This document shows positions 18,724 through 34,883 of a DNA stretch of 64,000 nucleotides, one piece after another (the first letter of the stretch is position 1; each line of letters begins with the position of its first letter). Made by a program: the position numbers and the translations under genes. The notes below the pieces were generated by a model. The model was given only the letters and a program-made list of their open reading frames with translations. It made no database searches and had not been told where the DNA came from. Source of the DNA: Betaproteobacteria bacterium (GTDB lineage: Bacteria > Pseudomonadota > Gammaproteobacteria > Burkholderiales > Usitatibacteraceae); contig JAGRPO010000088.1 in the NCBI GenBank assembly GCA_019449455.1, positions 459 to 64,458 on the forward strand, given 5' to 3'.

Positions 18724-19857
18724 TCAGCCCAGCGGGTCCTCGCGGAACTTTTCCTGGATGCGCTCGATCTCGTCGCGCTGCCCGGCGAGGCCCTTCACGC
18801 ATTCCGCGTCGAGGTGCGTGCCCGCGAGCTGGTCGAGGATGGCGAAGGCCACGTCGTTCGTGTACGCGTCCTTGTAGGGGCGCTTGCTGGTGAGGGCGTC
18901 GAAGACGTCCGCCACCGCGACGATCCGCGCCTCCAGCGGGATGGCGTCGCCCGCGAGGCCGTAGGGATAGCCCCGGCCGTCGACGCGCTCGTGGTGCAGG
19001 AGGGCGATGTTCCTCACCACCTCGATGTCCGCGAGGGAGCCCAGCCCGAAATTGGTCAGCAGCTCGTCGATGATCGCCTGCCCGCGATTGGCGTGCGTGC
19101 GCATCACGTCCATCTCCTTGTCGGTGAGGCTGTCCGGCTTGAGCAGGATCGCGTCGGGGATGCCGATCTTCCCGATGTCGTGCAGCGGGGCGTAGGCCTG
19201 GATGCGCTCGATGTACTCGTCGTCGAGGTCGTGCCGCTCGGCGAGCGCGCGGGCGACGAGGCGGGCGTAGCGCGACATCCGGTCGAGATGGCTGCCCGTC
19301 TCGGTATCGCGGGCGTTCACGATGTGCCGCGCGCTCTCGAGGGCGGCCGAGAGGGTCCGCACCGCGGCGAGCTCCTGGACCACCAGCAGCGACACCAGGT
19401 GGCCGAAGATGTCGAGCTGCGCGAGGGCGGTCTCGGTGAACACGTCGGGCTCGCGGGAATTGAAGAACACGAACCCCAGGAACGCGCCGTTCGAGAAGAT
19501 GGGCATCGTGTAGCTCGCCGCGAAGCCGGAGCGGCCCAGGCGCCTCGAATGCTCGCTCTCCGCGCCCTCGAACGTGAGCATGTGCTGGATGACGCGCGGG
19601 TGCTTCTCCTCCAGGAGCCTGGCGAGCGACGGCACTTCGCCGAGCGGCGCCTGGTAATGGGGCAGGGGATCGTCGCCGTCGCTCGAGTGGACGAAGGTCT
19701 TGAGGAACGTGGTCTTCGGGTCGTAGATCGCGACCGCGATGCGGGCCACGAACGGCATGAAGGTGCGCACCGCCCAGTGGATCTCGCGGATCCGGGCGCG
19801 CAGCGACCCTTCGCCGTTGAGTGCCTGCAGCGCGTCGTGGTGTTCCGTTTCGGTCAT
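18724..19857 (-). CDS. GAF-like sensor / HD-GYP domain c-di-GMP phosphodiesterase
   Basis: ATG at 19857 overlaps the upstream stop (ATGA). Motifs: YAPLHDIGKIGIP (HD) and HHERVDGRGYPYGL (GYP). Confidence 0.88.
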   Translation of the reverse strand: MTETEHHDALQALNGEGSLRARIREIHWAVRTFMPFVARIAVAIYDPKTTFLKTFVHSSDGDDPLPHYQAPLGEVPSLARLLEEKHPRVIQHMLTFEGAESEHSRRLGRSGFAASYTMPIFSNGAFLGFVFFNSREPDVFTETALAQLDIFGHLVSLLVVQELAAVRTLSAALESARHIVNARDTETGSHLDRMSRYARLVARALAERHDLDDEYIERIQAYAPLHDIGKIGIPDAILLKPDSLTDKEMDVMRTHANRGQAIIDELLTNFGLGSLADIEVVRNIALLHHERVDGRGYPYGLAGDAIPLEARIVAVADVFDALTSKRPYKDAYTNDVAFAILDQLAGTHLDAECVKGLAGQRDEIERIQEKFREDPLG

Positions 19858-20507
19858 GTCGCCTTCGCGCGCGGCGGCGAGGGGGTGGGCTTGATCCCGA
19901 GCTTGTCGGCCGCCCGCACGAGGTCGGCCACCGATCGCACCGACATCTTCTCCATGATGCGGCCGCGGTGCACCTTGACCGTCTTTTCGGTGGTGCCGAT
20001 CTCGGCGGCGATCACCTTGTTGCGCTTGCCGGCGATCACGTGGGTGAGCACCTCGCGTTCGCGCGGCGTGAGCTCGCCGTATCGAAGCGCGATCTCGCGC
20101 TTGGTGACCTTGTCGCTGGAGGCGGCGCGCGCGCGCGCGATGGCGCGCGTGAGAGCGGCGAGCAGTGTGGCGGCCTCGACGGGCTTGAGCAGGAAGTCGA
20201 CGGCGCCGCGCTTCATCGAGGTGACCGCTCCCGGCACGTCGCCGTGCCCGGTGAGGAAGACCACGGCGATCTCCGGCCGCAGGGCCTGCAGGCGGGCATG
20301 CAGCTCGAGGCCGCTCTTGCCCGGGAGCCCGATGTCGAGCAGCGCGCACGACGGCCCCGTGATGCCCGGCAGGAACTCGAGGAACTCCTCCGCGGTGGCG
20401 AAGGCCTGCGGGTCGGCGCCCTCGGCGCGCAGCAGGCGCGTGATCGACGTGCGCACCGACGGGTCGTCGTCGATGATGAACAGGCTCACGCCCTCGGCGG
20501 CGATCAT
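19854..20507 (-). CDS. FixJ/LuxR-type response regulator
   Basis: ORF 19854..20507. REC domain (LFIIDDDPS...ALLDIGLPG...K) plus LuxR HTH (LTPREREVLTHVIAGKRNKVIAAEIGTTEKTVKVHR). ATGA overlap with the kinase gene. Confidence 0.92.
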   Translation of the reverse strand: MIAAEGVSLFIIDDDPSVRTSITRLLRAEGADPQAFATAEEFLEFLPGITGPSCALLDIGLPGKSGLELHARLQALRPEIAVVFLTGHGDVPGAVTSMKRGAVDFLLKPVEAATLLAALTRAIARARAASSDKVTKREIALRYGELTPREREVLTHVIAGKRNKVIAAEIGTTEKTVKVHRGRIMEKMSVRSVADLVRAADKLGIKPTPSPPRAKAT

Positions 20508-21673
20508 TTGGGGTCTTCTCCCGGCAGGTGGATGGTGAAGGTGAGGCCGCGGCCGGCATTGCGCTCCAGCTCGAGCCGCCCGCCGTGAGCTTCCACCAGC
20601 GAGCGCGTGACGAGGAGCCCCAGGCCGGTGCCGCGTGCCTTGGTCGTGTGGAATGTCCGCGTCATGCGGGCGAGGACTTCGTTGTCGGCGCCCGGGCCGC
20701 TGTCGGTCACGCGCACGCGCACGCCCCCGTCCTCGGGCTCGACCGCGACCACGAGCGCGCGCTCGACGCCGGCGGGGTTGCCTTCCATCGCCTCGATGGC
20801 GTTCACCACGAGGTTCAGGAGCGCCTGGTAGAGCTGGACGGGATCGGCCATCACGCGGCCCAGCGTCTTGCGCGCCAGGAGCTGCGTCCTGACGCCGGCG
20901 TGACGCAGGTGCGTGCGCGTGAAGTCGAGGACCTCGGAGGCGATGCGGGCCGCGTCCACGGCCTCCGCGGCCGCCGGCTGCTTGCGCACGAGGCGGTGCG
21001 CGCGAAGGATGATCTCGCCGGCGCGCCGCGCGTCGCCCGCGATCGCCTCCAGGGCTTCGCGGACCTCGGCCGCGTTGCCCGAGTCGAGAAAACGCAGCGC
21101 GGCCTCGGCGTTGGCGGTGATGGCCGCGAGCGGCTGGTTCACCTCGTGGGCCAGGGAGGCGCCGAGGGCCGCCACCGTGCGCACCCGCGAGGCATGGGCG
21201 ACCGTGTCCTGGAGGTCGTGCTCGCGCTCGCGGGTGAGGTGCAGCTCGGTCACGTCGGACTGCGTGCCCACGTGGTGCGTGACCTTTCCCGTCGCGTCCC
21301 GGATGGGCGCGATGCGCAGGAAGTTCCAGAACGGCGTGCCGTCCTTGCGGTAGTTGAGGATCTCGCCCTGGAAGACCTTTCCCTGCTGCAGCGCGATGGC
21401 CATCTGCTTGACGGTCTCGGGGTCGGTCCCGGGGCCTTGCACCATGCGGCAGTTGGTGCCCAGGATCTCGTCGGCGGTGTAGCCCACCAGCCGCTCGAAC
21501 GACGGGCTCACGTAGACGATGGGCGCGTCCGGCGTCGAGGCGTCCGAGATGACGATGCCGTCGTCGGCCACGTCGAGCGCGGCGGCCTTGAGCCAGGTGG
21601 CGACCTCGGGAGGGAGCGCCTTTGCCGCGACCCGGGAGGCGCGCTTCGGCACGGTCGGCTTGCGGGCGGCCAT
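20504..21673 (-). CDS. LOV-domain sensor histidine kinase (FixL-like transmitter)
   Basis: ORF 20504..21673. LOV core DGIVISDASTPDAPIVYVSPSFERLVGYTADEILGTNCRMVQGPGTDPETV...GEILNYRKDGTPFWNFLRIAPIRD...GTQSDVTE. H-box LAHEVNQPLAAI. C-terminal HATPase_c (GTGLGL). Confidence 0.88.
   Translation of the reverse strand: MAARKPTVPKRASRVAAKALPPEVATWLKAAALDVADDGIVISDASTPDAPIVYVSPSFERLVGYTADEILGTNCRMVQGPGTDPETVKQMAIALQQGKVFQGEILNYRKDGTPFWNFLRIAPIRDATGKVTHHVGTQSDVTELHLTREREHDLQDTVAHASRVRTVAALGASLAHEVNQPLAAITANAEAALRFLDSGNAAEVREALEAIAGDARRAGEIILRAHRLVRKQPAAAEAVDAARIASEVLDFTRTHLRHAGVRTQLLARKTLGRVMADPVQLYQALLNLVVNAIEAMEGNPAGVERALVVAVEPEDGGVRVRVTDSGPGADNEVLARMTRTFHTTKARGTGLGLLVTRSLVEAHGGRLELERNAGRGLTFTIHLPGEDPK
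21254..21574 (-). other. LOV (light-oxygen-voltage) PAS subdomain of the kinase; adduct-forming Cys codon at 21449-21451
   Basis: GTNCRMVQG corresponds to the canonical GxNCRFLQG. The reverse complement of 21441-21460 reads GGC ACC AAC TGC CGC ATG GT. Confidence 0.8.
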
Positions 21674-21684
21674 CGGTCGCGCGC

Positions 21685-22398
21685 CTAGCCGGTGTACGTG
21701 CGCAGGCGCTCGATGTCGGGCACCGACACCGAACGGCCTTCCATCACGATGAGGCCGGCGTCGGCCAGCTCGTGGAGGATGCGCGAGAAGTACTCCGGCG
21801 TGAGGTTCAGCCGCGAGGCCACGATCATCTTGTTGGCGGGAAGCGTCACGCTCGCCGAGCGGGCGGAGCCGTCGGAAAGCGTGTCGTCGCGCAGCAGGTA
21901 GCCGATCACGCGCTCCAGGCCCGAGCGCAGCGAATACGCCTCCACGTCACGGATGAGCTGGTGAAGCTTCCTCGACATGCCGGCCAGCAGCCGGCGGGCG
22001 AAGCGCGGGTCGCGCTCGATCTCGTCGAGGACCATGCTCTTCGAGACGTGCAGCAGCAGCGAATCCTTCAGCGTCTGCGCGGAGATGACGTAGGGCATGT
22101 CCATGAAGAGGATCGCCTCCCCGAACGAGATGCCGGGGCCCATGATCTCGATCACCTTCTCCGAGCCCTGCGGCGAGGTGACGAAGAGCTTCACCTGCCC
22201 GTAGAGGACGACGTGGAATCCCTCGCAGCGGTCGCCGCGCGAGAAGAGAGTCTCGCCCTTCATCGCGTAGATGCGGCGCGTGCCGCCCGCTATGCGCGCG
22301 ATCTCCTCGGGCGTCAGGTCGCTGAACAGCGGGAGGTTCACCAGGAACTGCTCGACCGGGATGTCCGGCCCGCGCGCGCGCGGCTCTCCGGTTTGCAT
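21685..22398 (-). CDS. Crp/Fnr family regulator, Dnr/NnrR-like (no Fe-S Cys motif)
   Basis: ORF 21685..22398. LPLFSDLTPEEIARIAGG...GISFGEAILF... is the effector barrel. The HTH is IVASRLNLTPEYFSRILHEL. It lies 11 nt upstream of the LOV kinase start and 51 nt downstream of the respiratory operon. Confidence 0.88.
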   Translation of the reverse strand: MQTGEPRARGPDIPVEQFLVNLPLFSDLTPEEIARIAGGTRRIYAMKGETLFSRGDRCEGFHVVLYGQVKLFVTSPQGSEKVIEIMGPGISFGEAILFMDMPYVISAQTLKDSLLLHVSKSMVLDEIERDPRFARRLLAGMSRKLHQLIRDVEAYSLRSGLERVIGYLLRDDTLSDGSARSASVTLPANKMIVASRLNLTPEYFSRILHELADAGLIVMEGRSVSVPDIERLRTYTG

Positions 22399-22449: not shown

Positions 22450-23265
22450 TCACGACCCGACGGAAACGCGCCCGGGAAGGCCCGGGTCGGGCCGGGGGGC
22501 GGCCCGCGAGGAGAGCGCGGCGGCGATGGCCGCGCACAGCGCCGCCGAGGAAAGCAGGTTGTGCAGCCAGCGCGCCAGCGGCCAGCCGGAAGCGGCGACG
22601 GCGGCGAGGACCTGCGCCGCGATGAGCGCGACCGCCAGGCGGGCGGCGAGGCGCGCGCCCGGCGGCGGGGAGGCGCTGAACGCCAGCAGAGCCCATCCGG
22701 CGAGGCTCGCCCACGCGAGCGCGCGGTGGACGAGGGCGAGCGACGAGGGATCGGACGGCGGCGCGGTGGCGAGCACGCCGCCCGTCACCGTGGCGAGGGC
22801 GACGAGCGCGCTTGCCGCGACGAAGGGCGTCGCGAGGCGGCCGCGGGGGGCAAGCGCGGCGACCGCGAGGCCGGCCGACAAGGCGAGGAGGGTGAGGCCT
22901 CCGAGCAGGTTGGCGAGCATCACCGCGGGAGGCGCGGCGCCCGCCGAGCGCCGGCCGATGACCGCGAGCACCGCCACCAGCACGAGGACGGCGGCGGCCG
23001 CCACGCGGCGGCCGGGGCGCGCGGGGGCCTTCCACGCGACGGCGGCGATGAGGAGCGCGAGGACGGTCACGCCCATCGCCGCGACGCGATGGGCGAGCCG
23101 CACGGCATCGGAGAGCCCGAAACCGGTGCAGCCGCCGGCGGGGCAGGGCGCGGCCGCCAGCCGCAGCCAGGCGCTGGAGGCGACGACGACGAAGACGAGG
23201 GCGGCGCACGCCGCGGCCGACGCGACGAGCGCGCGGTCGTCCCGCGCGAGGCCGGGCAGGCTCAC
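22450..23265 (-). CDS. Polytopic membrane protein, weakly COX15/CtaA-like
   Basis: GTG at 23265 overlaps the upstream stop (GTGA). CPAGGC in the first loop, and AHRVAAMG / VHRALAWA helix motifs that recall the HR motifs of haem A synthase halves. Confidence 0.5.
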   Translation of the reverse strand: MSLPGLARDDRALVASAAACAALVFVVVASSAWLRLAAAPCPAGGCTGFGLSDAVRLAHRVAAMGVTVLALLIAAVAWKAPARPGRRVAAAAVLVLVAVLAVIGRRSAGAAPPAVMLANLLGGLTLLALSAGLAVAALAPRGRLATPFVAASALVALATVTGGVLATAPPSDPSSLALVHRALAWASLAGWALLAFSASPPPGARLAARLAVALIAAQVLAAVAASGWPLARWLHNLLSSAALCAAIAAALSSRAAPRPDPGLPGRVSVGS

Positions 23266-24683
23266 CGGACCCCGGCCGGGGCCCGCTGCCGGAGCGCGCC
23301 GATCACGACGATCACGAACGCGAGGCCGCCCAGGATGGCGACGAGGCCGCCCAGGCCCATCAGCGCCATGCCGGCCACCTCCTGGGACGTGCGCAGGACC
23401 TGCGCGGCGCCCGCCACCTTGCGCTCCACGCCGTAGCCGCCGGACCAGACCAGGCCCACGATGTGCGCGAGCTGCCCGCCGCCGTAGAGCCACGGCTGCC
23501 ACGCCGCCAGGCGGGACCGCGGCGCCGCGAAGCCCAGCTGCGGCAGCAGGTGGTAGGCGAGGCCCATGAAGGCGAGCGTCACGCCGACGATGCAGCCGTG
23601 GTAGTGCGCGGGGATCTTCACGTTGGGGCCGCTGATCGCGAACCCGATGAGGCCGCCGGCCGCGAAGAGCCCGATCGAGGCGGCGAGCGCGCCGAATATC
23701 GGGCGGCTGCGCCCGTCGAGCGCCGGCAGCCCGCGCATGGCCCAGAGCAACGCGAGCAGCACGGGCGGGATGGCGAGCCCGCCGCCGAATCGCATGAGCC
23801 ACGTCTGCAGCTTGTGGTGCTCGACCGACGCCACGGGGTGCGCGATGTAGATGGCAGGCGTCACGAGCACCGAGGCGAACGCGATGGTGAAGACGAGCAG
23901 CGTCACGCGCGGCGAGAGCGCCAGGCGCAGGCCCAGCGCCGAGGCGAGCCACAGCCAGCCCCCGAGCATGAGGAGCGTCCACGTGAACTGCAGCACGTGA
24001 CCGCCGCCCCAGAACAGCAGCTCGTAGTAGGCCTTGCGCTCGAGGTGCGGGGAGACGTCGAGGTACGACCAGCCGAACGCGGCCAGCGCGACGGCGGTCG
24101 CGGCCGCCGATCCCACGATGCCCCAGCGCAGCGCGGCCTCCCCGTCGAGGACGGATCCGGAGGACCGTGCCGCCCAGAACGTGCGTGCCACGGCGGCTGC
24201 CACGCCCGCGCCGATCGCGCCGAGCCCGCCGAGGAATACGGCGTTGTCGATGACCGGGATGTAATTGGCGAGCACCGGGACCGCGTGCCCCGCGAGAGGG
24301 GCGACGCACAGGGCGAGTGTCCCGGCCGCGCACAACGCGAGCGATGTCCAGCCCAGGGCGATGGCGCGCGAATCGCAGGCGAGGCTCCAGAGGACGCCGG
24401 CGAAGGCGAGGAACCACACCAGCACCGAGAGGTCGACGTGCGCGACGAGCGCCACCTGGAAGAAGTCCGCGACGGGAAACACCTCCTTCAGTCCGGGCGT
24501 GCGCGCGAGCACCAGCAGCAGCGAGAAGATGCCGGAGCCGACGAGGGCGGCGATGCCGAGCACCAGCCAGCCCGTGGCGAGCCGCGCGGAGGCGTCGCGC
24601 GCCACCGTGATCCCGTAGGCCGTGCCCCGGCCGGAACCCGCGGAGGATGCAGTGGGGAGATGAAGGGAGGGCAGGCTAGCCAT
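23262..24683 (-). CDS. Orphan haem-copper oxidase superfamily catalytic-subunit homologue (473 aa)
   Basis: ORF 23262..24683, 12-TM pattern. All six canonical His are present: LVAHVDL (helix II), LFWGGGHVLQF (helix VI), SVEHHKLQ (helix VII), IPAHYHGCIVG (helix X). There is no Tyr at His+4. The start overlaps the upstream gene by 8 nt. Confidence 0.8.
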   Translation of the reverse strand: MASLPSLHLPTASSAGSGRGTAYGITVARDASARLATGWLVLGIAALVGSGIFSLLLVLARTPGLKEVFPVADFFQVALVAHVDLSVLVWFLAFAGVLWSLACDSRAIALGWTSLALCAAGTLALCVAPLAGHAVPVLANYIPVIDNAVFLGGLGAIGAGVAAAVARTFWAARSSGSVLDGEAALRWGIVGSAAATAVALAAFGWSYLDVSPHLERKAYYELLFWGGGHVLQFTWTLLMLGGWLWLASALGLRLALSPRVTLLVFTIAFASVLVTPAIYIAHPVASVEHHKLQTWLMRFGGGLAIPPVLLALLWAMRGLPALDGRSRPIFGALAASIGLFAAGGLIGFAISGPNVKIPAHYHGCIVGVTLAFMGLAYHLLPQLGFAAPRSRLAAWQPWLYGGGQLAHIVGLVWSGGYGVERKVAGAAQVLRTSQEVAGMALMGLGGLVAILGGLAFVIVVIGALRQRAPAGVR

Positions 24684-26265
24684 GGTGCTTCTCCTGGCGT
24701 TTGGGTGGCAGGGTGTGGCGGGCCGCGCGCGGCCCCAGGCGGGAAAGCTCGGTGCGGAACGTGTCGAGTTCGACGCGCAGCGCGTCGAGATCGGTGAGCC
24801 CGGCGTGCGCGTACCGGACGCGCTCCCGCGGCACGCTCGAGCGCAGGGAGGGCTTGCGCCCGCCGTCCAGGCGGGCCGCGACGAGCGCGTCGCCCACGCG
24901 GAACTCGCAGTCGCCCTCCCGGCATCCCGCGACGAGCACGCCGTCGGCGCCCGCGCGAAGGGCGTATTCGACGAAGGAGGGAGGCACCATCGCGGCGCAC
25001 AGGAACTCGATCGCGGCCGTGGAGTGGCCCTCGAGGGACGCGACGCCGGCGCCCCAGCGGCAGCCGAACACCACGATGCGGGGGCCGCCCTCGAGCGCCG
25101 CCGCGCGCGCCTCGAGCCGCGCGCGCAGCCCGCCGATGGTCGCCGAGGGCATGTCGATGCCCGTGGCGAGCGCCTCGTCGCGGCGGAAAGGCGTCGAGGA
25201 CGGGCAGGCGCCGGTGCAGATGCCGCATCCCGCGCAGAGGTTCGCGTCGACCTGCGCCTGCCGGAGGTGCGGCCGGGCGTCGGTGCGCGGCACCATCACC
25301 ACGGCGTCGTAGGGGCAATCGGCGAAGCAGCGCGCGCAGCCGTTGCAGTTGGCGAGGTTCACGCGGGCCACCGGCGCGCGCGGCACGCGGGTGGCGTAGG
25401 GCAGCGCGGCGAGGCCGGCGAAGAACGCGGCGGTCGCCGCCCACAGGCCCTCGGGGCCGAGCCAGGCCATGGCCGGGTGCGGAAAGAGGTAGAACCAGTC
25501 GAGCGGGATCGTCGCGGGCAGCAGGCCGAGGTCGGCGGCGGGCATGAGCGAGACGGGCTTCGCGAGCGCGAGCGCCGCGAGCATCGCGGCCGTTCCCCAG
25601 GCAAGGGCGCGCGGCGGTTGGGTGCGCGCCGGGCTCACCCGCTGCACGTGGACCCACATCGCCGCGAGCATCGCTAGCGGCAGGCCGATGTGCAGGAAGA
25701 TGAGGAGCGAGAAGAAGCGGTCGTTCACCTGGTCGCCGGCGATGACGTTGCGGGTGAGCGCCCCGTCGAAGAACGGCAGCGCGTCGAGCCATTCGGTGGT
25801 CGCGGTGAGGCTCCATTGCGCGAGCTGGTCCCAGGGGAGCCAGTAGCCGCCGATGCCGGCGGCGAACATCAGGGCGAGCGCGAAGATGCCCGTGAGCCAG
25901 GCGAATCGCCTGAACGCGGCGTAGTGGCGGCGCGAGAGCTCGCGCACGAGATGCAGCGCCGTGACCGCCACGAGGGCGTCGGCGCTGTAGCGGTGCAGGG
26001 CGCGCGCGAACGCTCCCAGCGGCCAGGCGTTCCGGTCCATCGCGGCGAGGCTCTCGCGCGCGCCGGTGGCGCTGGTGTCGAAGCCGACGTAGATCCAGAT
26101 GCCGGAGGCGCAGCAGATCCAGAAGGAGAGGAAGCCGAGGGCGCCCAGGTGCCGCCACGGGTTCAGGCGCTGGCCGAAGGCGCGGTCGAAGAGCGCGTCC
26201 AGCCGCTCGACGATCGGGGCGGCGGGACCCGGCCCGGGAAGCGCGAAGGCGGCGGAAGCGTTCAT
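24676..26265 (-). CDS. Fusion protein: dihaem cytochrome b (bc-type N-domain) + 2x[4Fe-4S] ferredoxin + MvhD/FlpD-like domain
   Basis: ATG at 26265 within ORF 24676..26574. Cyt b His pairs: ALHRY...ALHLV and FLHIGLPL...WVHVQ, plus GYWLPWDQLA. Fe-S motifs CNGCARCFADCP and CAGCGICTGACP. MvhD-like motifs VVFGCRWG...LVAGCREGDCEF. Confidence 0.8.
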   Translation of the reverse strand: MNASAAFALPGPGPAAPIVERLDALFDRAFGQRLNPWRHLGALGFLSFWICCASGIWIYVGFDTSATGARESLAAMDRNAWPLGAFARALHRYSADALVAVTALHLVRELSRRHYAAFRRFAWLTGIFALALMFAAGIGGYWLPWDQLAQWSLTATTEWLDALPFFDGALTRNVIAGDQVNDRFFSLLIFLHIGLPLAMLAAMWVHVQRVSPARTQPPRALAWGTAAMLAALALAKPVSLMPAADLGLLPATIPLDWFYLFPHPAMAWLGPEGLWAATAAFFAGLAALPYATRVPRAPVARVNLANCNGCARCFADCPYDAVVMVPRTDARPHLRQAQVDANLCAGCGICTGACPSSTPFRRDEALATGIDMPSATIGGLRARLEARAAALEGGPRIVVFGCRWGAGVASLEGHSTAAIEFLCAAMVPPSFVEYALRAGADGVLVAGCREGDCEFRVGDALVAARLDGGRKPSLRSSVPRERVRYAHAGLTDLDALRVELDTFRTELSRLGPRAARHTLPPKRQEKHHG

Positions 26266-26294: not shown

Positions 26295-26795
26295 CTAGCG
26301 GATGAGGATCCCGCCCTTGCCGGGCTCGAAGTCGATCACCAGCACGCGGCCGGGCTCGAGGCGCACCTGCTCCTCGCGCACGCGGTCGAACGTGCCCGCG
26401 GCATCGTCGGCGAGCGCCACGCGCAGCCGGTGCGTGCCGGCCGCCACGGGGATGCGCCGGTAGGCGACGGAGGCGCCGTCGCGCGAAAAGCCGGCGGGCT
26501 TCGCGACGATGTCGGCGACGGGGGCGCCGTCGAGCTCCACCTTCACGAGCACCGGGGCGCGCTCGCGGGGGCAATCCTCCGCGGCGCGCATGTTGGGGGC
26601 GAGCTTCGCGAGTTCCTCGGGCGTGCGCATGCGGCAGGCGACCTTGCGCTGTCCCGCGTGGTTGAGGGACAGGCGGATCAGCGCGTACCCCGGCGGCAGC
26701 GGCCTGAAGGCCGGCGCGGTCGAGAAGTAGCCGAGGGCGGCCGCGAAGGCGCCGTAGAGGAGGGCCTGGAGAACGTAACGGAAGGCGCGGTTCAC
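26295..26795 (-). CDS. Hypothetical single-TM protein of the operon
   Basis: GTG at 26795 overlaps the upstream stop (GTGA). N-terminal TM YVLQALLYGAFAAALGYF, then a soluble domain of about 130 aa with no motif I recognise. Confidence 0.55.
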   Translation of the reverse strand: MNRAFRYVLQALLYGAFAAALGYFSTAPAFRPLPPGYALIRLSLNHAGQRKVACRMRTPEELAKLAPNMRAAEDCPRERAPVLVKVELDGAPVADIVAKPAGFSRDGASVAYRRIPVAAGTHRLRVALADDAAGTFDRVREEQVRLEPGRVLVIDFEPGKGGILIR

Positions 26796-28729
26796 GGGCG
26801 GCCTCCCAGGCGCACGACGTCGGCGTCCCCGGCGTGGATGCGCGGCGCGAGCTTGAACGCGTCCGAGAAGCAGTCGTCGGGCGCGAGCCCCTGCTTGGCG
26901 AACGCCGGCTGCGCGGCCTCGACCATCTTCACCGAGCCGCACGCGTAGATGCGATGCCCCGCGAGGTCGGGATAGTCGGAGAGGATCGCCTCGTGGACGA
27001 GCCCGGTGCGGCCCTCCCACGCTTCCCCGGGCGCGGGGTCGGAGAGCACGGGCACGAAGCGGAAGTTCGGATGCTCCCTGGCCCAGCGCTCGGGGAGCTC
27101 GCGCAGGTACATGTCGGCGAGCGTGCGCGTGCCCCAGTAGAGCACCATGGGCCGCGTGATCCCGGCGTGGAACGCGTGCTCCACCATGCTCTTCACGGGC
27201 GCGAAGCCGGTCGCCCCCGCGACGAAGATCACGGGCTTGGCGCCGTCCTCGCGCAGGAAGAAGGAGCCCACGGGCCCCTCGAAGCGCACGCGGTCGCCGA
27301 CCTTCATGGCGGTGAAGACGTGCGTGGTGAAGCGGCCGCCCTGGATGGCCCGGATGTGCAGCTCGATGGGGCCTTGCTCGTGCGGGGCGGTGGCGAAGGA
27401 GAAGGCGCGCTTCTGGCCGTCGTCGAGGAGGATGTTGATGTACTGGCCGGCGTAGAACGGTGCCTTCCCGCCGCCCTCCACCTCGAGGCGCACGCGCATC
27501 ACGTCCTTCGCCAGGAGGTCGAGCGAGACGACGCGCGCCTCGTGCACGGCGACCGGGCGGGCCGCCTGCGCCGTGGGCTCGTACTCGATTTCCACGTCGG
27601 AGAGTGGCTTGGCCACGCAGGCGAGGACGCGCCCGGCCTCGCGGTCGGCGGCCGTGAGGGCGCTTTGCTGGTAGGCGCCCAGCGCCACCTCGCCGTGCAG
27701 CACCGTGCACTTGCACACGCCGCAGCCGCCGTTGCGGCAGTCGAAGGCCATGGGCAGGCCGTCCCTCAGGCACGCGTCGAGGAGCGACTCGTCCTCCTTC
27801 ACCGGGATGATGCGGTTGTCCGGATGGGCCAGGACATGGAAGGCGCGCAATTCGCGGCGCCCGAACTTCGGCGGCAGCCACGGCGCCATGACGGCGAGCA
27901 GCGTGAGTCCTCCCACGAGCAGCCACAGGGTGTCGGGCGACCAGCGGTAGAGCAGCGCGTAGGTCGGCATGTAGAACCAGTCGAACTCGATCGCGGCGGC
28001 CATCGTCGCGAGGTCGGCGGGCCCCTGGCTCAGGGCCGGCTTCACGACCGAGAGCACGACCATGGCCGCGCCCAGCGCGGCCATCAGCGGGTTCGGGGGC
28101 AGCGTCTTCGCCTGCGGCACGCGGTGGGTGTGGATCCACAGGAGCGCCAGCACGCCGAGCGGCAGCCCGATGTGGAGGAAGGAGAGCAGCGAGAAGAACC
28201 GGTCGTTCACGCTGTCCGCGACCAGGAAGTTGCGCATGAGCAGCCCGTTGAAGACCGGGAGCGCGTCGAACCACTCGGCGGTGGCCGTGACCGTGAACGC
28301 CGCGAGCTGGTCCCACGGCAGCATGTAGCCGTTGATGCCGGAGGCGTAGACGAGCCACAGCACGAGCACGCCGCTCACCCACGAGAACCAGCGGAACCCG
28401 CGGTGGCGGTCGAAGGCGAAGTGGCGCAGGAGGTGCAGCGCCATCGTGAGCACCATGCCGTCGGAGGCGTAGCGGTGCAGGCTTCGCATGATGCCCCCGG
28501 CCCACTTCTGCCCGTGCGTGAGCCGCTCGACCGACAGGTACGCCTCGGTGACGCTCGTGTCGAAGAAGGCGTAGAGGTAGAGCCCGCTCGCGACCACGAC
28601 CCAGAACAGCCAGTAGCTGATCGCCCCCAGGTGGTAGAGCGGGTTCAGGTGCTCGCCGAAGATCGCGTTGGCGGCCCGCTCGGCGAGAAGGAACAGGCGT
28701 TGGAGCAGTCGCTGCAGGAGCTTGAGCAT
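26792..28729 (-). CDS. Fusion protein: dihaem cytochrome b + plant-type [2Fe-2S] ferredoxin + FAD/NAD(P)H ferredoxin-reductase module
   Basis: ORF 26792..28729. Cyt b: SLHRY...ALHLL, GYMLPWDQLA, FLHIGLPL...WIHTH. [2Fe-2S]: CRNGGCGVCKC...LACVA. FNR module: RAFSFA (RxYS-type FAD site), VAGATGFAP (NAD(P)H site), YACGSVKM. Confidence 0.85.
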   Translation of the reverse strand: MLKLLQRLLQRLFLLAERAANAIFGEHLNPLYHLGAISYWLFWVVVASGLYLYAFFDTSVTEAYLSVERLTHGQKWAGGIMRSLHRYASDGMVLTMALHLLRHFAFDRHRGFRWFSWVSGVLVLWLVYASGINGYMLPWDQLAAFTVTATAEWFDALPVFNGLLMRNFLVADSVNDRFFSLLSFLHIGLPLGVLALLWIHTHRVPQAKTLPPNPLMAALGAAMVVLSVVKPALSQGPADLATMAAAIEFDWFYMPTYALLYRWSPDTLWLLVGGLTLLAVMAPWLPPKFGRRELRAFHVLAHPDNRIIPVKEDESLLDACLRDGLPMAFDCRNGGCGVCKCTVLHGEVALGAYQQSALTAADREAGRVLACVAKPLSDVEIEYEPTAQAARPVAVHEARVVSLDLLAKDVMRVRLEVEGGGKAPFYAGQYINILLDDGQKRAFSFATAPHEQGPIELHIRAIQGGRFTTHVFTAMKVGDRVRFEGPVGSFFLREDGAKPVIFVAGATGFAPVKSMVEHAFHAGITRPMVLYWGTRTLADMYLRELPERWAREHPNFRFVPVLSDPAPGEAWEGRTGLVHEAILSDYPDLAGHRIYACGSVKMVEAAQPAFAKQGLAPDDCFSDAFKLAPRIHAGDADVVRLGGRP

Positions 28730-28738
28730 GGGGGAGGT

Positions 28739-29575
28739 TCAGCCGGCGGCGCGCAGCCGGCGGCGGTGGCGTTGCCATTCGCGCAGCAGGTAGACGAGCG
28801 TGGTGAGGAGGATCGACAGGCCCGCGAGGATCTCGATCACCACGCCGTAGTCCAGGCGGTACCGGCCGGTGCGCGGATCGTAGACGGTGCACAGCAGGCG
28901 AACGCGGTCGACGATGTTGGCGAGGCTCGCCGCGGGCAGGGGCGCGTCGGTGAGGAGCGCCTTCAGCGGGCCCACGAGCATCGACATCTCGAAGTTCTCG
29001 CCGTAGACCTGCGCGGCCACGCGGCCGTTCGCGTCGAGGAGCGTCACCTGCGTGAGGTGGTCGAAGCCGCCGGCGGAGGCGGCGTAGCTGAAGCCCAGCT
29101 CGCGCGTGATCGCCTCCACCACCCCGGCCTCGGGGCTGAGGAAGTGCCAGTCGCGGCGGTCGATGCCCTGCTGGCGGGCGAAGGCGCGCATCGCCTCGGG
29201 CGTGTCGTAGGGGTAGTTGAAGCCGATGGTGGCCAGGGAGTAGCGCCCCGGGCCCAGCGCGCGGTCGGCCTCGGCGACGGCCTTGGCCAGGAAACGCGTG
29301 GTGGTGGGGCAGACCTGCGAGCAGCCGGTGTAGACGAAGCTCACCAGCACCGGCCGGCCGCGAAGCTGCGACAGGCGGAAGGGACTCCCGTCACCGGCCC
29401 GGAAGGCGTGGTCGCCCACCGGGGTGCCGATGGCGCGCTGGCTGCGGTCGAGGGCCGCGTCCGGCTCCAGGGTGGCGCCCTCGGGCGCTGCTCGCGCCTG
29501 CACAGCGCCGAGGACTGCCCCGAAGCAGAGCGCGGCCGCCGTCAGCAGCCAGCGCGGTCGGCATCCGTTGCCCAT
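28739..29575 (-). CDS. SCO1/SenC copper chaperone with an extra C-terminal TM segment
   Basis: ATG at 29575 within ORF 28739..30337. Signal/anchor, then thioredoxin-fold motif FVYTGCSQVCPTT (CxxxC) and a conserved His in GFDHLTQV. Confidence 0.88.
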   Translation of the reverse strand: MGNGCRPRWLLTAAALCFGAVLGAVQARAAPEGATLEPDAALDRSQRAIGTPVGDHAFRAGDGSPFRLSQLRGRPVLVSFVYTGCSQVCPTTTRFLAKAVAEADRALGPGRYSLATIGFNYPYDTPEAMRAFARQQGIDRRDWHFLSPEAGVVEAITRELGFSYAASAGGFDHLTQVTLLDANGRVAAQVYGENFEMSMLVGPLKALLTDAPLPAASLANIVDRVRLLCTVYDPRTGRYRLDYGVVIEILAGLSILLTTLVYLLREWQRHRRRLRAAG

Positions 29576-29580
29576 GCGGG

Positions 29581-30480
29581 CTAGCCTCGCCAGGCCGCGT
29601 CCGCGATCACGCCGATGAGAAGTAGCGAGAGCTGGGCGAGCGAGGCGTGGAAACTGCGCATCGCGGTGGCGCGCGAAGGATCCCTGGCAAGGCGGGCCGC
29701 GGCCCGCAGGAAGAGGAAGCCCCCCGCGATCGCGCCTGCGGCATAGAGCGGACCCAGGCCGAAGGCGAGCGGAAGGAACGAGGAGAAGACGAGGACGACG
29801 GTGCCGGCGAGGACCGCGCGTGCCGCGCGGGCGTCGCCGACGACGACCGGCAGCATCGGCACGCCGGCGGCCCGGTAGTCGTCGTGGTAGGCGATGGCGA
29901 GGCTCCAGAAATGCGGCGGGGTCCACAGGAACAGGACCCACGCGAGCGACGCGGCGACGGGGCCGACCTCGCCCGGCGCGACGCTCGTGGCGCCGGCGAG
30001 CACCGCGAAGCTGCCCGCGAGCCCGCCGATCACGATGTTCATCCAGGTGCGCCGCTTGAGGACGACGGTGTAGACGACGCCGTAGAAGAAGGCGCCCAGG
30101 AACACGAACAGGGCGGCCACCGGGTTCACCGCGACGGCCGTCGCGCAGACGGCGAGCGCCAGCATCAGGCCGATCACGCCCAGCCAGAACGGCCCGTGCG
30201 TGAGCCGGCCGGTGACGAACGCCCGGTGGCGCGTGCGCCCCATGCGCGCGTCGAGGTCGCGCTCGACGTACTGGTTGAACGCGCCGGCCGAAGCGGACGC
30301 GGCGATGACGCAGGCCACCAGCAGGGCGATCTGCCACGCGCCCGCCGCCTGCCGGCCGGGGACCGCGAGGGCTCCCGCGAGCGCGGTGAGCCCGATCGCG
30401 AACCCGATGCGCAGCTTGAACAGGTCGAAGAACAACCTCACCTGGTCGCGCATCGGGCCTGCATGTCCATCTTCGCTCAT
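29581..30480 (-). CDS. ctaB: Protohaem IX farnesyltransferase (haem O synthase)
   Basis: ATG at 30480 within ORF 29581..31944. NQYVERDLDARMGRTRHR (UbiA-type motif) and LFLWTPPHFWSLA. Confidence 0.9.
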   Translation of the reverse strand: MSEDGHAGPMRDQVRLFFDLFKLRIGFAIGLTALAGALAVPGRQAAGAWQIALLVACVIAASASAGAFNQYVERDLDARMGRTRHRAFVTGRLTHGPFWLGVIGLMLALAVCATAVAVNPVAALFVFLGAFFYGVVYTVVLKRRTWMNIVIGGLAGSFAVLAGATSVAPGEVGPVAASLAWVLFLWTPPHFWSLAIAYHDDYRAAGVPMLPVVVGDARAARAVLAGTVVLVFSSFLPLAFGLGPLYAAGAIAGGFLFLRAAARLARDPSRATAMRSFHASLAQLSLLLIGVIADAAWRG

Positions 30481-30506: not shown

Positions 30507-32228
30507 CTACTTGAGCGGCCAGACGGTCGACAGGTACTTCCAGTTCACGAAGTAGTAGAGGATGAACGACGTGAGGAAGATCATCGCCAGCACGAAGGTG
30601 CCCGGCGCCACGAACCCGCCGATGCCGATGGAGCCGTGGCCCGACGGGGCGGCGGCGACCGGTACCGGCGCGGGCGCCATGCCCTGGCGGACCGGGACGT
30701 GCTTGAAGTCCGGCGTCTGGATCTTCTTGCCGAAGAACACGGAGCCCACGGTGATGGCGAGGTACATCCCGCCGCCGATGACCGCGGCGATGCCCGAGAC
30801 CGCCATGATGCCCATCATGAGATAGGCGGTGCCGGGGAACTCGTGCGGCAGGATCGCGCCCGAGAACGCCATGTCCCAGTGCCGGCGCGGCACGCCCAGC
30901 GTCCCGGCGCCCATCATGAACACCGAGAAGGAGCACATGCCGAGGCCGTAGACATAGGGCTGCCACTTCGCCATGCCCGGGAACATGACCTCGCGCCGGA
31001 AGAGCGTCGGGATGAGGAAGTAGGTGAGCGCCATGAACGCGAGCGTGGTGCCCACGACGACCGTCGCGTGGAAGTGGCCGGGCACGTAGATCGTGTTGTG
31101 GATGATGAGGTTCAGCTGCTCCGTGCCCATCATCACGCCCGAGATGCCGCCCAGGAAGCCGAAGCCCACGAGCGAGATGAACATCCCCGAGAAGCTCGGG
31201 TTGCCCCAGGGGGCCTTGCGCAGCCACTCGAAGAAGCCCTTGTTGAAGCCCTTCTCGCGCTGCGCCACCTCGATCGCGCCCGGCACCGTGAGGCCGTGCA
31301 CCATGGAGGCGAGCACCGCGAGGTACATGGCGTAGCTGGTGTTGAAGATCTTCCAGTTGGAGGTGAGGCCGGGGTCGGCGAGCAGGTGGTGGGCGCTCGC
31401 GAGCTGCAGGAAGAGGATGTAGAGGACGAAGGCGGTCCGGCTCACCTTCTCGCTCATCGGCTTCGCGCCGAAGACGATGGCGGCGATCGCGTACCACACC
31501 GACACGTGGGCCGCGACGTTGATCTGCTGCGAGGAGTGCCCGAACGCCCACCAGACGGTGCGGTACATGAGGGAGTCGATGTGCGACACCAGGCCCACGG
31601 ACCAGAGGAAGGTGGGGATCAGGATGATCGCGCCCGCGGCGATGGTGAAGACGGCGATGATCGCGGCGGTGACGGCCCCGAAGGTCACCAGCGGGATCGA
31701 GCCGTTGTAGGTCTTCTCCGCCTTGCCGACGACCAGCGTGCCGAAGAACACGAAGCAGGCGACGAGCGCGCCCACGGCGAAGAGGATGAGCCCGAGGTAG
31801 AAGAGCGGGTGCGCCCCCATCGGCACGTAGGAGGTGAACATCACGCTGGAGTCGCCCTTGAACACGGCGAAGTTGTTCGTGAGCGCGCCGACGATCATGA
31901 GCCAGAAGGCGACCCAGGCCACCTTCGGCGTCGCGAGCCGGCACTTGAGGAGCGTGGAGGCGGCGAAGTAGAGCACCGCGATCTCGAAGAAGATGATCCA
32001 GAAGACGAGCATGTCCAGCCCGTGCGCGGTGAGCGCGAGGTAGAACCAGTCGGGCGGCAGCAGCTTCACGGCGGGCCAGCGCGTGAGCGTGACCAGGAGC
32101 GCGAGGACTCCGCCCACGAGGAGGGAGACCACCCCCGCGACGGCGTTCCAGCGGATGAGCTTCTCGGCCGGCTCGTGGAAGACGAGGCCGGAGGACGGGC
32201 AGGTGCGGAAATTGCGATTGACGGCCAT
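30507..32228 (-). CDS. Haem-copper oxidase subunit I, B-family-like, lacking the cross-link Tyr
   Basis: ORF 30507..32228. TAHGLDMLVFW (helix II His), WWAFGHSSQQINV (CuB His; His+4 is Gln, not Tyr), ASAHHLLADPG (HH), VPGHFHATVVVG (HxH). Confidence 0.9.
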   Translation of the reverse strand: MAVNRNFRTCPSSGLVFHEPAEKLIRWNAVAGVVSLLVGGVLALLVTLTRWPAVKLLPPDWFYLALTAHGLDMLVFWIIFFEIAVLYFAASTLLKCRLATPKVAWVAFWLMIVGALTNNFAVFKGDSSVMFTSYVPMGAHPLFYLGLILFAVGALVACFVFFGTLVVGKAEKTYNGSIPLVTFGAVTAAIIAVFTIAAGAIILIPTFLWSVGLVSHIDSLMYRTVWWAFGHSSQQINVAAHVSVWYAIAAIVFGAKPMSEKVSRTAFVLYILFLQLASAHHLLADPGLTSNWKIFNTSYAMYLAVLASMVHGLTVPGAIEVAQREKGFNKGFFEWLRKAPWGNPSFSGMFISLVGFGFLGGISGVMMGTEQLNLIIHNTIYVPGHFHATVVVGTTLAFMALTYFLIPTLFRREVMFPGMAKWQPYVYGLGMCSFSVFMMGAGTLGVPRRHWDMAFSGAILPHEFPGTAYLMMGIMAVSGIAAVIGGGMYLAITVGSVFFGKKIQTPDFKHVPVRQGMAPAPVPVAAAPSGHGSIGIGGFVAPGTFVLAMIFLTSFILYYFVNWKYLSTVWPLK

Positions 32229-32238
32229 GGCGGTCTCC

Positions 32239-32793
32239 CTACCCTTTCTTCGGCTTGACGACGTAGAGCTTGCTCGCCATCGTGTGGTGGTTGATGCCGC
32301 AGTACTCGTTGCAGATGATCGAGTACGTGCCTTCCTTCGTCGGCGTGAGCGTCACGACGTGCTCGTAGCCGGGGTGGATCTGGATGTTGATGTTCTCGGG
32401 CTGCAGCGAGAAGCCGTGCAGCCAGTCGGTCGACATGATGTGCAGGCGGTAGGTCTGCCCTTCCTCGAGCTCGAGGACGGGCCAGAACTGCCAGAGGCGG
32501 GCGACGAGATAGACGTCGCTGCCGGGCACCGGATGCACCACGGGGATGTTCTGCTCGGTGACGGTGCGCACCGTGTGCTTGTCGACCATCGCCTGCGCCT
32601 TGGCGAGGTAGGCCTCGGGCGTGGTGCGGTAGGCCTCGTTGGAGAGGTTCTGCTTACCGTAGACGTGCCAGTACGGCATCATGAAGAACATCACCATGCA
32701 CCAGACGAAGGCGATGACGATCCAGGTGCCTTCGACGCGGTCCAGGGGCTGCTTCCACCAGAGTCGTTCGGCAGGGGGTTGTATGGCGCTCAT
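32239..32793 (-). CDS. Haem-copper oxidase subunit II with an intact CuA site
   Basis: ORF 32239..32793. It has one TM and then a cupredoxin domain with DWLHGFSL and CNEYCGINHHTM (CxExCGxxHxxM). Confidence 0.85.
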   Translation of the reverse strand: MSAIQPPAERLWWKQPLDRVEGTWIVIAFVWCMVMFFMMPYWHVYGKQNLSNEAYRTTPEAYLAKAQAMVDKHTVRTVTEQNIPVVHPVPGSDVYLVARLWQFWPVLELEEGQTYRLHIMSTDWLHGFSLQPENINIQIHPGYEHVVTLTPTKEGTYSIICNEYCGINHHTMASKLYVVKPKKG

Positions 32794-32817: not shown

Positions 32818-33000
32818 TTATTTGGCGATCGGAATGCCGACGATCTCCATCACGCCCCAGACGATGTACAGGACGGTGGGCATCGCGACGCCGAGGAACA
32901 GCAGGAGGAACGGGTTGTCGATCAGCTGCTGCATCATCGGGACCGGCTCGTCGTGCATGTCGTCGTCCGCCGGGGCGGGCGAGGCGGGTACCTGACTCAT
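32818..33000 (-). CDS. Small single-TM peptide, first gene of the operon (possible subunit IIa-like accessory)
   Basis: ATG at 33000 follows AGGAGGAG. MSQVPASPAPADDDMHDEPVPMMQQLIDNPFLLLFLGVAMPTVLYIVWGVMEIVGIPIAK. Confidence 0.5.
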   Translation of the reverse strand: MSQVPASPAPADDDMHDEPVPMMQQLIDNPFLLLFLGVAMPTVLYIVWGVMEIVGIPIAK

Positions 33001-33054
33001 GGGGTCTCCTCCTGGAATGGGGGGCGGGCCGCGGGGGCGACACGTCACGCAGGT

Positions 33055-33096
33055 ATGCTAGGCAGCCGGCCCGGGGAAAAAATTGAACCCGTTCAA
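33055..33096 (-). promoter_or_regulatory. Candidate class II Crp/Fnr(Dnr)-dependent promoter of the respiratory operon
   Basis: Perfect palindrome TTGAAC-CC-GTTCAA (33083-33096; TTGA-N6-TCAA core). On the minus strand the -10-like TAGCAT (33060 to 33055) begins 29.5 nt from the box centre, i.e. the classical -41.5 geometry. Confidence 0.5.
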
Positions 33097-33150
33097 GAAA
33101 AGCCGCTTTGGACCCCGGTGCCGTGGCAGATCGCCCGTCCGGCCGCTAAC

Positions 33151-34818: not shown

Positions 34819-34841
34819 CGGCCCTCCGGAAGCGAGGACCA

Positions 34842-34883
34842 AGACTACCGGGACGGGCGCCGCGGCAATTTAAAGAAGATCAA
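34842..34883 (-). promoter_or_regulatory. Weak Crp/Fnr-like half-site promoter candidate for the hemerythrin-like gene
   Basis: TTAAAGAAGATCAA (34870-34883; only the right half ATCAA is canonical). The minus-strand -10-like TAGTCT (34847 to 34842) begins 29.5 nt from the centre. It shares the TCAAGAAAA flank with the 33083 box. Confidence 0.25.

Follow-up and report, generated by a model that had tools for sequence, protein, structure and literature searches.

A haem-copper oxidase subunit I paralogue of the eNOR operon with both predicted haem sites kept and two of the three CuB ligands apparently lost

We analysed a 64,000-nucleotide stretch of betaproteobacterial DNA (GenBank assembly GCA_019449455.1, contig JAGRPO010000088.1; hereafter the window), in which a gene at 23262-24683 on the minus strand encodes a homologue of haem-copper oxidase (HCO) subunit I, here termed the HCO-like protein. 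It lies in an operon for eNOR, a nitric oxide reductase (NOR) of the HCO superfamily, and is a new member of the family recently named 'eNOR scaffold protein'. Its predicted haem ligands are conserved, and most of what would make it a conventional O2 or NO reductase is not. Genes of the window were called from third-position GC content (GC3), Pfam and NCBIfam, and those of the operon and its surroundings are listed here, the operon in transcription order.

32239-32793, minus: eNOR subunit II (eNOR II), 184 aa, with a complete CuA motif H...CNEYCGINHHTM (PF00116 and sequence)
30507-32228, minus: eNOR subunit I (eNOR I), 573 aa, with GHSSQQ and an intact HH pair (PF00115, 226 bits; motifs)
29581-30480, minus: haem o synthase, CtaB/CyoE (TIGR01473, 241 bits, cut-off 210)
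28739-29575, minus: SCO1/SenC copper chaperone (PF02630 and start codon)
26792-28729, minus: fusion of cytochrome b (cyt b, N-terminal type), [2Fe-2S], FAD and NAD(P)H domains, 645 aa, hereafter cyt b-FNR (Pfam)
26295-26795, minus: 166-aa protein with an N-terminal transmembrane (TM) helix and a beta-sandwich, in no Pfam family (GC3, AlphaFold2)
24676-26265, minus: dihaem cyt b (N-terminal type) with two [4Fe-4S] clusters and an MvhD/FlpD domain, hereafter cyt b-MvhD (Pfam, conserved His pairs)
23262-24683, minus: the HCO-like gene, an open reading frame (ORF) of 473 codons with an ATG start, encoding a 12-TM HCO subunit I paralogue of the 'eNOR scaffold protein' family
22450-23265, minus: divergent CtaA/COX15-like polytopic membrane protein, 271 aa, GTG start (BLASTP)
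21685-22398, minus: Crp/FNR-family regulator (Pfam, NCBIfam)
20504-21673, minus: PAS (FixL/LOV-like) histidine kinase (Pfam, NCBIfam)
18724-20559, minus: GAF-HD(-GYP-like) protein
32953-34221, plus: haem a synthase CtaA/COX15, divergent from the operon (PF02628, 366 bits)
34249-34842, minus: hemerythrin gene, upstream of the operon

Counted from eNOR II, the HCO-like gene is the eighth of the operon. Its GC3 of 0.95, in a region of ~72% GC, marks it as a real gene, and the frame plot places it in a run of minus-strand genes; a plus-strand reading of 23262-24683 gives nonsense. The ATG (24683-24681) overlaps the TAG stop codon (24678-24676) of the cyt b-MvhD gene, the two genes sharing 8 nt, and the stop codon lies inside a GTGA overlap with the GTG start of the CtaA/COX15-like gene. 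The HCO-like gene is translationally coupled on both sides.

An initial annotation of this DNA, made from the letters and their ORFs, had already picked out the 473-aa ORF and placed its start inside the 3' end of the cyt b-MvhD gene, which the overlap bears out; the partnership that it proposed between the two products is corroborated by natural fusions described below. It had also called the gene an orphan, and this cannot stand: a complete eNOR-type HCO is encoded 6-9 kb upstream in the same conserved operon. It was right that the HCO-like protein has no cupredoxin subunit II of its own, since the operon's sole COX2 gene adjoins that of eNOR I. The best matches of eNOR I in the PDB are of the B-family (7deg, 2.8e-52; ba3, ~1e-46), and Gln replaces the cross-link Tyr, an active-site Gln being the eNOR signature (PMC8756737 Table A4; PMC11214002).

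The window thus holds at 30507-32793 a complete eNOR, followed by genes for haem o synthase and SCO1 with CtaA divergent, and its organism is likely an eNOR-type NO reducer; nir, nos and nar genes were absent among the window ORFs scanned. No FNR box (TTGAT-N4-ATCAA, with at most one mismatch) occurs near the operon. The 271-aa product of 22450-23265 reaches Pfam only below threshold, and is 35% identical (BLASTP, E 2e-11) to the product of a COX15-CtaA-annotated gene at a related locus (L081).

Membership of the HCO superfamily is clear. PF00115, the profile whose use the initial annotation had recommended, matches the HCO-like protein over residues 36-442 at 56.1 bits against a curated cut-off of 34.8, with no match among NCBIfam models. 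An AlphaFold2 (AF2) model built from a 28-sequence alignment (pLDDT 86.6, pTM 0.89) has twelve long helices, as expected for the 12-TM core proposed earlier. With residues numbered throughout from Met1, helix VI spans 216-249, helix VII 258-281 with a kink at 274, and helix VIII 287-318. Top Foldseek matches of the model in the PDB are all HCO subunits I (ba3, cbb3, bo3 and aa3; TM-score 0.63-0.74), with the best structural sequence identity, 20-22% at a TM-score of ~0.7, to Thermus ba3. Against PDB sequences, phmmer and a hidden Markov model (HMM) of the close family found no HCO, and the diverse family profile alone reached ba3. Sequence profile and model together describe a diverged HCO subunit I homologue with a confidently predicted 12-helix fold.

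Its active-site residues were compared with those of ba3 and eNOR I and with 132 representatives of the family. The segments concerned are as follows.

24438-24440, minus: codon of His82, helix II, predicted axial ligand of the low-spin haem (aligns with ba3 H72 and eNOR H69)
23985-23999, minus: H229-V-L-Q232-F233, helix VI (H229, Q232 and F233 align with ba3 H233/V236/Y237 and eNOR H231/Q234/Q235)
23847-23852, minus: Ile278-Tyr279, end of helix VII, aligned with the canonical CuB His-His pair
23814-23822, minus: Glu288-His289-His290, N-terminus of helix VIII on the periplasmic side (aligns with eNOR N-W-K)
23598-23606, minus: H360-Y361-H362, helix X (aligns with ba3 H384/H386)
23418-23423, minus: Arg421-Lys422, loop XI-XII, counterpart of the haem-propionate Arg pair (ba3 R449/R450, eNOR R448/R449)

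The haem ligands are the simplest case. H82 is kept in 131/132 representatives and H360 and H362 in 129/132 each; by alignment H360 is the high-spin ligand and H362 the second low-spin ligand. The bis-His pair of the low-spin haem (H82, H362) and the single His of the high-spin haem (H360) align with ba3 H72, H386 and H384 and are at least 98% conserved, and the counterparts of the propionate-binding Arg pair are nearly as constant (R421 126/132, K422 127/132). As far as alignment can tell, both predicted haem sites are kept. In helix VI, H229 is invariant (132/132) and Q232 almost so (131/132).

The CuB/FeB site is another matter. The four motifs quoted in the initial annotation (those around H82, H229, H289-H290 and H360-H362) are all present, and from them it concluded that all six canonical His ligands were there and that low-spin haem, high-spin haem and a CuB/FeB-type site were probably retained. 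The haem part of this prediction agrees with our alignments; the metal site is unsupported, and the HH of E288-H289-H290 most probably fails as the CuB pair, an alignment showing a ligand His to be wrongly assigned being what the annotation had itself named as grounds for refutation. When a diverse family profile (the 132 representatives, Neff 4.8) is aligned by hhalign with eNOR plus ba3 (Prob 99.9, E 1.3e-35, 431 columns), helices VI-VIII run essentially gapless, eNOR 'ASAHHLLADPGLTSNWK' pairs with 'TPAIYIAH-PVASVEHH' of the HCO-like protein, and the register becomes ba3 H282/H283 = eNOR H280/H281 = I278/Y279. HMMER, with an independent 40-sequence family profile searched against ba3 in the PDB, gives the same register, with the CuB pair again on I278-Y279. 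By the AF2 helix limits EHH falls within the opening turn of helix VIII. We take the helix limits of the bovine enzyme to place the canonical HH ~20 residues past the start of helix VII and ~8 before helix VIII, which corresponds to residues 278/279 here.

Conservation agrees with this register. Among 194 close relatives E288 is kept in 98% and H289 in 99%, while position 290 is 45% His and 40% Arg; among the diverse representatives His occupies position 289 in only 27% and position 290 in 7%. Of 131 diverse representatives, 63% have no His at all in the nine residues before T294, and six have HH there. Conservation of E288 and H289 is limited to a Burkholderiales subfamily, and in every set H82, H229, H360 and H362 are the only canonical His that are invariant or nearly so. 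H229 is most likely the sole surviving CuB-type ligand, and the HH at 289-290 most likely a chance dipeptide ~10 residues downstream of the true CuB position.

Three points weigh against placing the dipeptide outside the site. An hhalign comparison of close relatives only (Neff 2.3) pairs H289-H290 with the HH of eNOR and ba3, at the price of an insertion of ~10 residues in helix VII; we rejected this pairing in favour of that from the diverse profile, which is ungapped and scores much better. That EHH lies away from the high-spin haem is deduced from alignments, predicted helix limits and conservation patterns. Finally, with ~98% conservation of E288/H289, the segment may form a subfamily-specific metal site in Burkholderiales. 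The HH dipeptide itself, its pairing among close relatives and the constancy of E288/H289 in Burkholderiales are what recommends the alternative closest to the initial annotation: a new catalytic HCO family with six canonical His and an intact CuB/FeB site, working as a single subunit supplied by the cyt b-MvhD protein. We consider this improbable, given the 10-residue insertion that it costs in helix VII, the gapless diverse profile and the HMMER comparison with ba3 that both put I278-Y279 at the HH position, the first-turn location of EHH in the model, and the poor retention of H290 (His in 45% of close relatives and 7% of the diverse set, with 63% of representatives lacking any His in the stretch).

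Other catalytic residues are missing too. At the cross-link position, where ba3 has Y237 and eNOR Q235, the HCO-like protein has F233 (Phe in 76% of the family, Tyr in 9%), and at His+3 its Q232 corresponds to eNOR Q234 and ba3 V236; the initial annotation had correctly read Phe at His+4, Gln at His+3 and the lack of a cross-link Tyr. O2-reducing HCOs have a redox Tyr cross-linked to the helix VI His, at His+4 in the A and B families and from helix VII in the C family; Y279 probably supplies none, aligning as it does with a CuB-His position and not with the C-family Tyr position. The K-channel residues of ba3, Y244, Y248, S309, T312 and T315, are replaced by L240, L244, I305, V308 and A311, all hydrophobic, and the conserved proton-input channel of O2-reducing HCOs is accordingly lacking. 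With two of the three CuB/FeB His, the Tyr/Gln and the K channel lost, the protein is most likely no conventional O2 or NO reductase. About 40 residues are nevertheless invariant or near-invariant in the family, among them W225, E221, N140-Y141, T294, M297, Y361 and Q396. The protein looks like a haem-binding derivative that has shed its copper site and proton channel while its distal pocket stayed under strong constraint.

Placement within the superfamily was judged from profile scores. With a broad family HMM, eNOR subunits reach 100-135 bits (133 for that of the window), ba3 50-61, the Aquifex B-type enzyme 37-39 and A-type enzymes no more than 8.5, and no cbb3, cNOR or qNOR chain in the PDB is matched at E<=10; the B-family members ba3 and Aquifex 7deg are the only solved HCO structures that the HMM matches. 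With four A-type sequences, hhalign aligns the family over helices IX-XII only (E 3e-5). The Gln at His+3 is common to the family and eNOR. By these measures eNOR subunit I is the nearest relative of the family, which, on the strength of the profile scores and the shared Gln, may have arisen from an eNOR-like (B-type) subunit I.

The earlier view that the protein has no obvious place among the A, B or C oxygen reductases, cNOR or qNOR is borne out by comparison with characterised enzymes, none of these catalytic families accommodating it: it lacks their family-specific residues, and C-type chains are unmatched by the HMM. To eNOR subunit I, of which the Rhodothermus marinus enzyme has been characterised (PMC11214002), it is akin in its B-family relationship, fold, haem ligands, Arg-pair position and Gln at His+3, and the two are encoded in the same operon; it is, however, ~100 residues shorter and lacks two of the three FeB/CuB His, the diagnostic Gln (F233 in its place), the K-channel residues and a CuA subunit II of its own. 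Thermus thermophilus ba3 subunit I (1EHK/3S8F) is matched full length by the family HMM (E 5e-16), yet has a CuB His pair, a His-Tyr cross-link, a K channel and subunits II and IIa that the HCO-like protein does without. O2-reducing HCOs have a redox subunit II (CuA cupredoxin or cytochrome c) alongside, whereas the only COX2 gene of this operon adjoins eNOR I. Where cNOR and qNOR have Glu at His+4 as a fourth FeB ligand there is Phe, with no NorC-like gene and no N-terminal extension; where gNOR, sNOR, bNOR and nNOR, compared by description, have Asp, Asn, Asn and Glu at the Tyr position and a cupredoxin subunit II, there is again Phe. A parallel in kind is gNOR, a proposed NOR that is likewise B-family-derived, with a broken three-His site and no Tyr; in gNOR one active-site His has become Asp and the cupredoxin-fold subunit II is kept (PMC11214002), whereas here two His are lost (to Ile and Tyr) and the neighbouring 166-aa beta-sandwich has no cupredoxin similarity. 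The cNOR-related 'N2O reductase' family and NOD (Murali et al.) were ruled out as homes for the protein, being kin to cNOR/qNOR, while the family matches B-type structures only.

The family is discrete and large. More than 5388 homologues occur in a collection of 5.8 billion proteins, and a profile search of 1.84 billion cluster representatives (50% identity) found 1717 clusters at E<=1e-3, 794 of them at E<=1e-30, without bringing in canonical HCOs. When one genome was scanned for each species, homologues turned up in at least 592 species. Four cultured strains are among the carriers: Ramlibacter cellulosilyticus USB13, Noviherbaspirillum sp. ST 5-3, Quisquiliibacterium transsilvanicum DSM 29781 and Piscinibacter caeni MQ-18. 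Such numbers bear on the possibility that the gene is a decaying, functionless duplicate of eNOR subunit I. The loss of CuB ligands, Tyr/Gln position and proton channel is what such a duplicate would show, but thousands of intact full-length homologues in those species, the ~40 constrained residues, the GC3 of 0.95, the conserved synteny and the detection of the protein in a proteome (that of Ferrigenium) make the idea scarcely credible, and the conservation data already contradict it.

Synteny was sampled at 80 of the carrier genome loci by tblastn with the window proteins, and the gene set of the window recurs there. An eNOR lies within reach of the HCO-like gene in ~60 of the 80, the 166-aa gene adjoins it in 73, and the 166-aa and cyt b-MvhD genes are adjacent in 73-79. 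Two gene orders occur: cyt b-FNR, 166-aa, cyt b-MvhD, HCO-like; and cyt b-MvhD, 166-aa, HCO-like, cyt b-FNR. A further eighty loci from metagenomes, taken with ten contexts of distantly related members, fall into three classes. In the first the order is eNOR II/I, (CtaB), SCO1, cyt b-MvhD, (hemerythrin), 166-aa, HCO-like, sometimes beside nirS/nosR, and most metagenome loci also have the gene in an eNOR operon. In the second a divergent CtaA and HCO-like pair stands alone, with no eNOR within 10 kb (L082, L084, L088-90, L110, L160, L170); distant members occur that have no COX2 gene within 10 kb either. In the third the gene is next to CtaB-CtaA beside an aa3-type cluster (L085, L086). CtaA is the sole neighbour found in all classes; conversely, almost every eNOR operon examined carries a second subunit-I-like gene of this type. 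The cyt b-FNR fusion is largely limited to a Burkholderiales subset, in whose eNOR operons it is conserved, lies up- or downstream of the HCO-like gene, and is missing from many gammaproteobacterial loci.

Some further features of these neighbourhoods were seen. A CtaA-like gene follows the HCO-like gene in a subset of loci only, and other loci have two tandem CtaA genes. Hemerythrin-domain genes recur in or beside the eNOR/HCO-like cluster (34249-34842 in the window; L081, L083, L168, L169), at some loci between the cyt b-MvhD and 166-aa genes; they presumably resemble the NorA/DnrN/YtfE-type di-iron proteins that accompany other NOR genes. Two tandem NIR_SIR (sulfite/nitrite reductase-like) genes come directly after the HCO-like gene at L081 (11604-14038) and L083 (11677-14014), both Sulfuricaulis-type loci, and the NosR and nirS clusters come after the NIR_SIR pair. 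Elsewhere in the window, a 920-aa ORF at 41365-44127 (minus) combines an N-terminal cytochrome b with multihaem cytochrome c (c7/c3-like) motifs.

The 166-aa protein is encoded almost always directly upstream of the HCO-like gene. It has 829 homologues, all annotated hypothetical, and an AF2 model with a pLDDT of 87. Positively charged residues before the TM helix suggest that the beta-sandwich is periplasmic. Residues H44, C52, M67 and C73 (positions of alignment A3) are invariant and form a segment H-x7-C-x14-M-x5-C within the invariant S-L-x-H-A-G-x-R-K-x-x-C-R-x-R-x-x-E-E-L-A-K-L-A-P-N-M-R-A-x-x-x-C-P-R-E-R; the His/Cys/Met/Cys set is a possible metal or disulfide site. We considered the protein as a degenerate subunit II, which its topology resembles, and rejected this after Foldseek gave no cupredoxin match; against the PDB no significant fold was found, the best hit (E 1.7e-3, TM-score at most 0.42) being to unrelated beta-sandwiches.

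In each of the two cyt b fusions, the pairs of His that mark a dihaem cytochrome b are both intact. The 645-aa cyt b-FNR fusion at 26792-28729, with its plant-type 2Fe-2S cluster, is unusual, and could in principle conduct electrons through the membrane from NAD(P)H in the cytoplasm.

Natural fusions of the HCO-like protein occur among the family representatives (P0121/P0511, P0244, P0131, P0181, P0206, P0241). One is to an N-terminal cyt b (P0121/P0511), in two members of identical length on different contigs; another to a C-terminal haem o synthase (TIGR01473, 250 bits), on one contig only and to that extent weaker evidence; and a third to C-terminal, CcmH/CycH-like TPR repeats, in four separate 50% clusters. 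These fusions support a putative physical association with cytochrome b, a link to haem O/A biosynthesis and some aspect of protein-protein scaffolding.

The same operon has been described in Ferrigenium straubiae by Becker et al. in a 2026 preprint (bioRxiv 10.64898/2026.01.22.701106) whose authors include an HCO specialist. Its genes encode eNOR II, eNOR I, heme o synthase and sco1, together with a 'Cytbc1CCC-like protein 1' (cyt b, Fe-S, FAD, NADH), speculated there to be a quinol:NAD+ oxidoreductase, and a 'Cytbc1CCC-like protein 2' annotated as a hydrogenase delta subunit. Gene 2878407321, 'hypothetical' in IMG and cox subunit I (K02274) in KEGG, is named 'eNOR scaffold protein' in the preprint, of unknown function and very common in eNOR operons; all listed operon proteins were detected in a proteome, the scaffold protein, which is made under denitrifying conditions, with a score of 28.0, below the 31.6 of eNOR. 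The gene of the window answers to that description, being COX1-like and set in an eNOR-haem o synthase-sco1 operon with cyt b-FeS fusion genes, and it was matched to 2878407321 by operon content and the preprint's description (with its SI Table 6), which comes without an active-site analysis. The two operons differ in that Ferrigenium has PerM between the genes and the window a CtaA-like gene downstream of the HCO-like gene. The family is undescribed in the main text of the PNAS paper defining eNOR, sNOR, gNOR and nNOR, and a literature search for HCO homologues lacking CuB returned irrelevant papers only.

What the protein does instead of conventional catalysis is less certain. The best explanation, to which we would give about even credence, is that the protein carries two haems, is redox-active and serves the eNOR/haem A system as an accessory, its likeliest task being eNOR maturation. 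It would bind two haems, probably of A type given its companions, and would sit in the membrane with the dihaem cyt b-4Fe4S-MvhD protein, the 166-aa protein and CtaA/CtaB-type enzymes. Electrons would be exchanged with the cytoplasm through the cyt b-MvhD protein, to which the cyt b-FNR protein would in Burkholderiales add a route from NAD(P)H. The service rendered to maturation of the haem-A(s)-containing eNOR could be haem A handling or insertion, support of its synthesis, or eNOR assembly, probably with no turnover of a respiratory substrate by the HCO-like protein itself. An accessory role is favoured because of the fixed position with eNOR, CtaB and SCO1, the CtaA/CtaB neighbours, the GTGA-coupled CtaA-like gene and the fusions. 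In being encoded with genes for haem A synthesis and a copper chaperone the protein resembles Surf1/Shy1, the CtaA-CtaB complex and SCO1; a scaffold score below that of the enzyme in the Ferrigenium proteome also resembles an assembly factor, and the TPR-fused variants suggest a protein-protein scaffold.

Several observations nonetheless count against an accessory. Factors of the Surf1/Shy1 type are unrelated in sequence and fold, and small, whereas this is a 12-TM, subunit-I-like protein with electron-transfer partners. The known haem a insertion factors (Surf1) being, to our knowledge, small and unrelated, we know of no precedent for a 12-TM haem chaperone. Dedicated electron-transfer partners, cyt b-MvhD and cyt b-FNR, look more enzyme-like than a passive chaperone should. 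Distal to the high-spin haem, H229, Q232, E221 and W225 hardly vary across the family, and the co-location with CtaA could reflect the protein's own need of haem A as cofactor.

The main rival reading makes the protein an active small-molecule reductase with a copper-less site, formed by the high-spin haem with H229, Q232 and Y279 on its distal side, to which a 2-His-1-Glu metal site may be added in the Burkholderiales subfamily. Fed from the cytoplasm by the cyt b-MvhD and cyt b-FNR proteins, it would act as a membrane NAD(P)H:NO (or O2/peroxide) oxidoreductase and so protect eNOR, Fe-S clusters and the synthesis of haem A against NO or O2. The near-invariance of the distal residues, the retention of haem ligands and propionate anchors, the obligatory cyt b partner with its fusions, and the NAD(P)H-FAD-2Fe2S module in the operon all speak for such an enzyme, as do the hemerythrin, nirS and nosR genes near it in relatives and the Crp/FNR and PAS-kinase regulators downstream; a 2-His-1-Glu non-haem iron that supports NO reduction in a myoglobin model is cited in PMC11214002 (its reference 42). 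We still find it rather unlikely: many family members stand beside CtaA alone without a cyt b or FNR partner, there is no conserved cytoplasmic proton pathway, E288/H289 are not kept family-wide, and the operon already has a complete eNOR for NO.

The constancy of CtaA can be given a different sense, in which the HCO-like protein and its cyt b-FeS partners would do the oxidising on a route to haem A(s) that needs little oxygen or none. It would bind haem O/A and either withdraw the electrons of the methyl-to-formyl conversion or give CtaA activated oxygen or reductant, allowing eNOR to be matured under denitrifying, nearly anoxic conditions. In its favour, CtaA accompanies the gene in each class of context, the window has a CtaA-like gene in translational coupling with it, one fusion is to haem o synthase, and the literature remarks on a paradox: haem A synthesis depends on O2, yet the eNOR that requires it is made anoxically (PMC11214002 section 6; 10.64898/2026.01.22.701106). 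The proposal is, however, entirely inferential, its CtaB fusion is on a single contig, and a protein that simply used haem A would be expected to have the same neighbours. We know, moreover, of no such chemistry for the HCO fold, and hold this route for even more doubtful than a six-ligand enzyme.

As a source of N2O, eNOR was validated recently; it is widespread and may conserve energy, which gives some weight to a gene found in almost all of the eNOR operons examined. That the gene exists had been flagged in the preprint; what is added here is a revised assignment of the ligands, the lack of a proton channel, the closeness to eNOR subunit I and the associations with CtaA/CtaB, cyt b and TPR repeats. 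Genes of this family are mis-annotated as cbb3 oxidases, and because the copper/iron site, the Tyr/Gln position and the proton channel are lost they should be counted neither as oxidases nor as NORs in metagenomic surveys. The vague label of 'scaffold' can now be replaced by testable hypotheses, either haem A handling or a cytoplasm-fed haem enzyme. Were the protein needed for eNOR maturation, it would offer a marker of, and a handle on, aerobic or microoxic denitrification, and would inform on the supply of haem A under oxygen limitation; and were the haem A(s) route true, it would resolve the paradox that an enzyme of anaerobic respiration depends on a cofactor whose synthesis takes O2.

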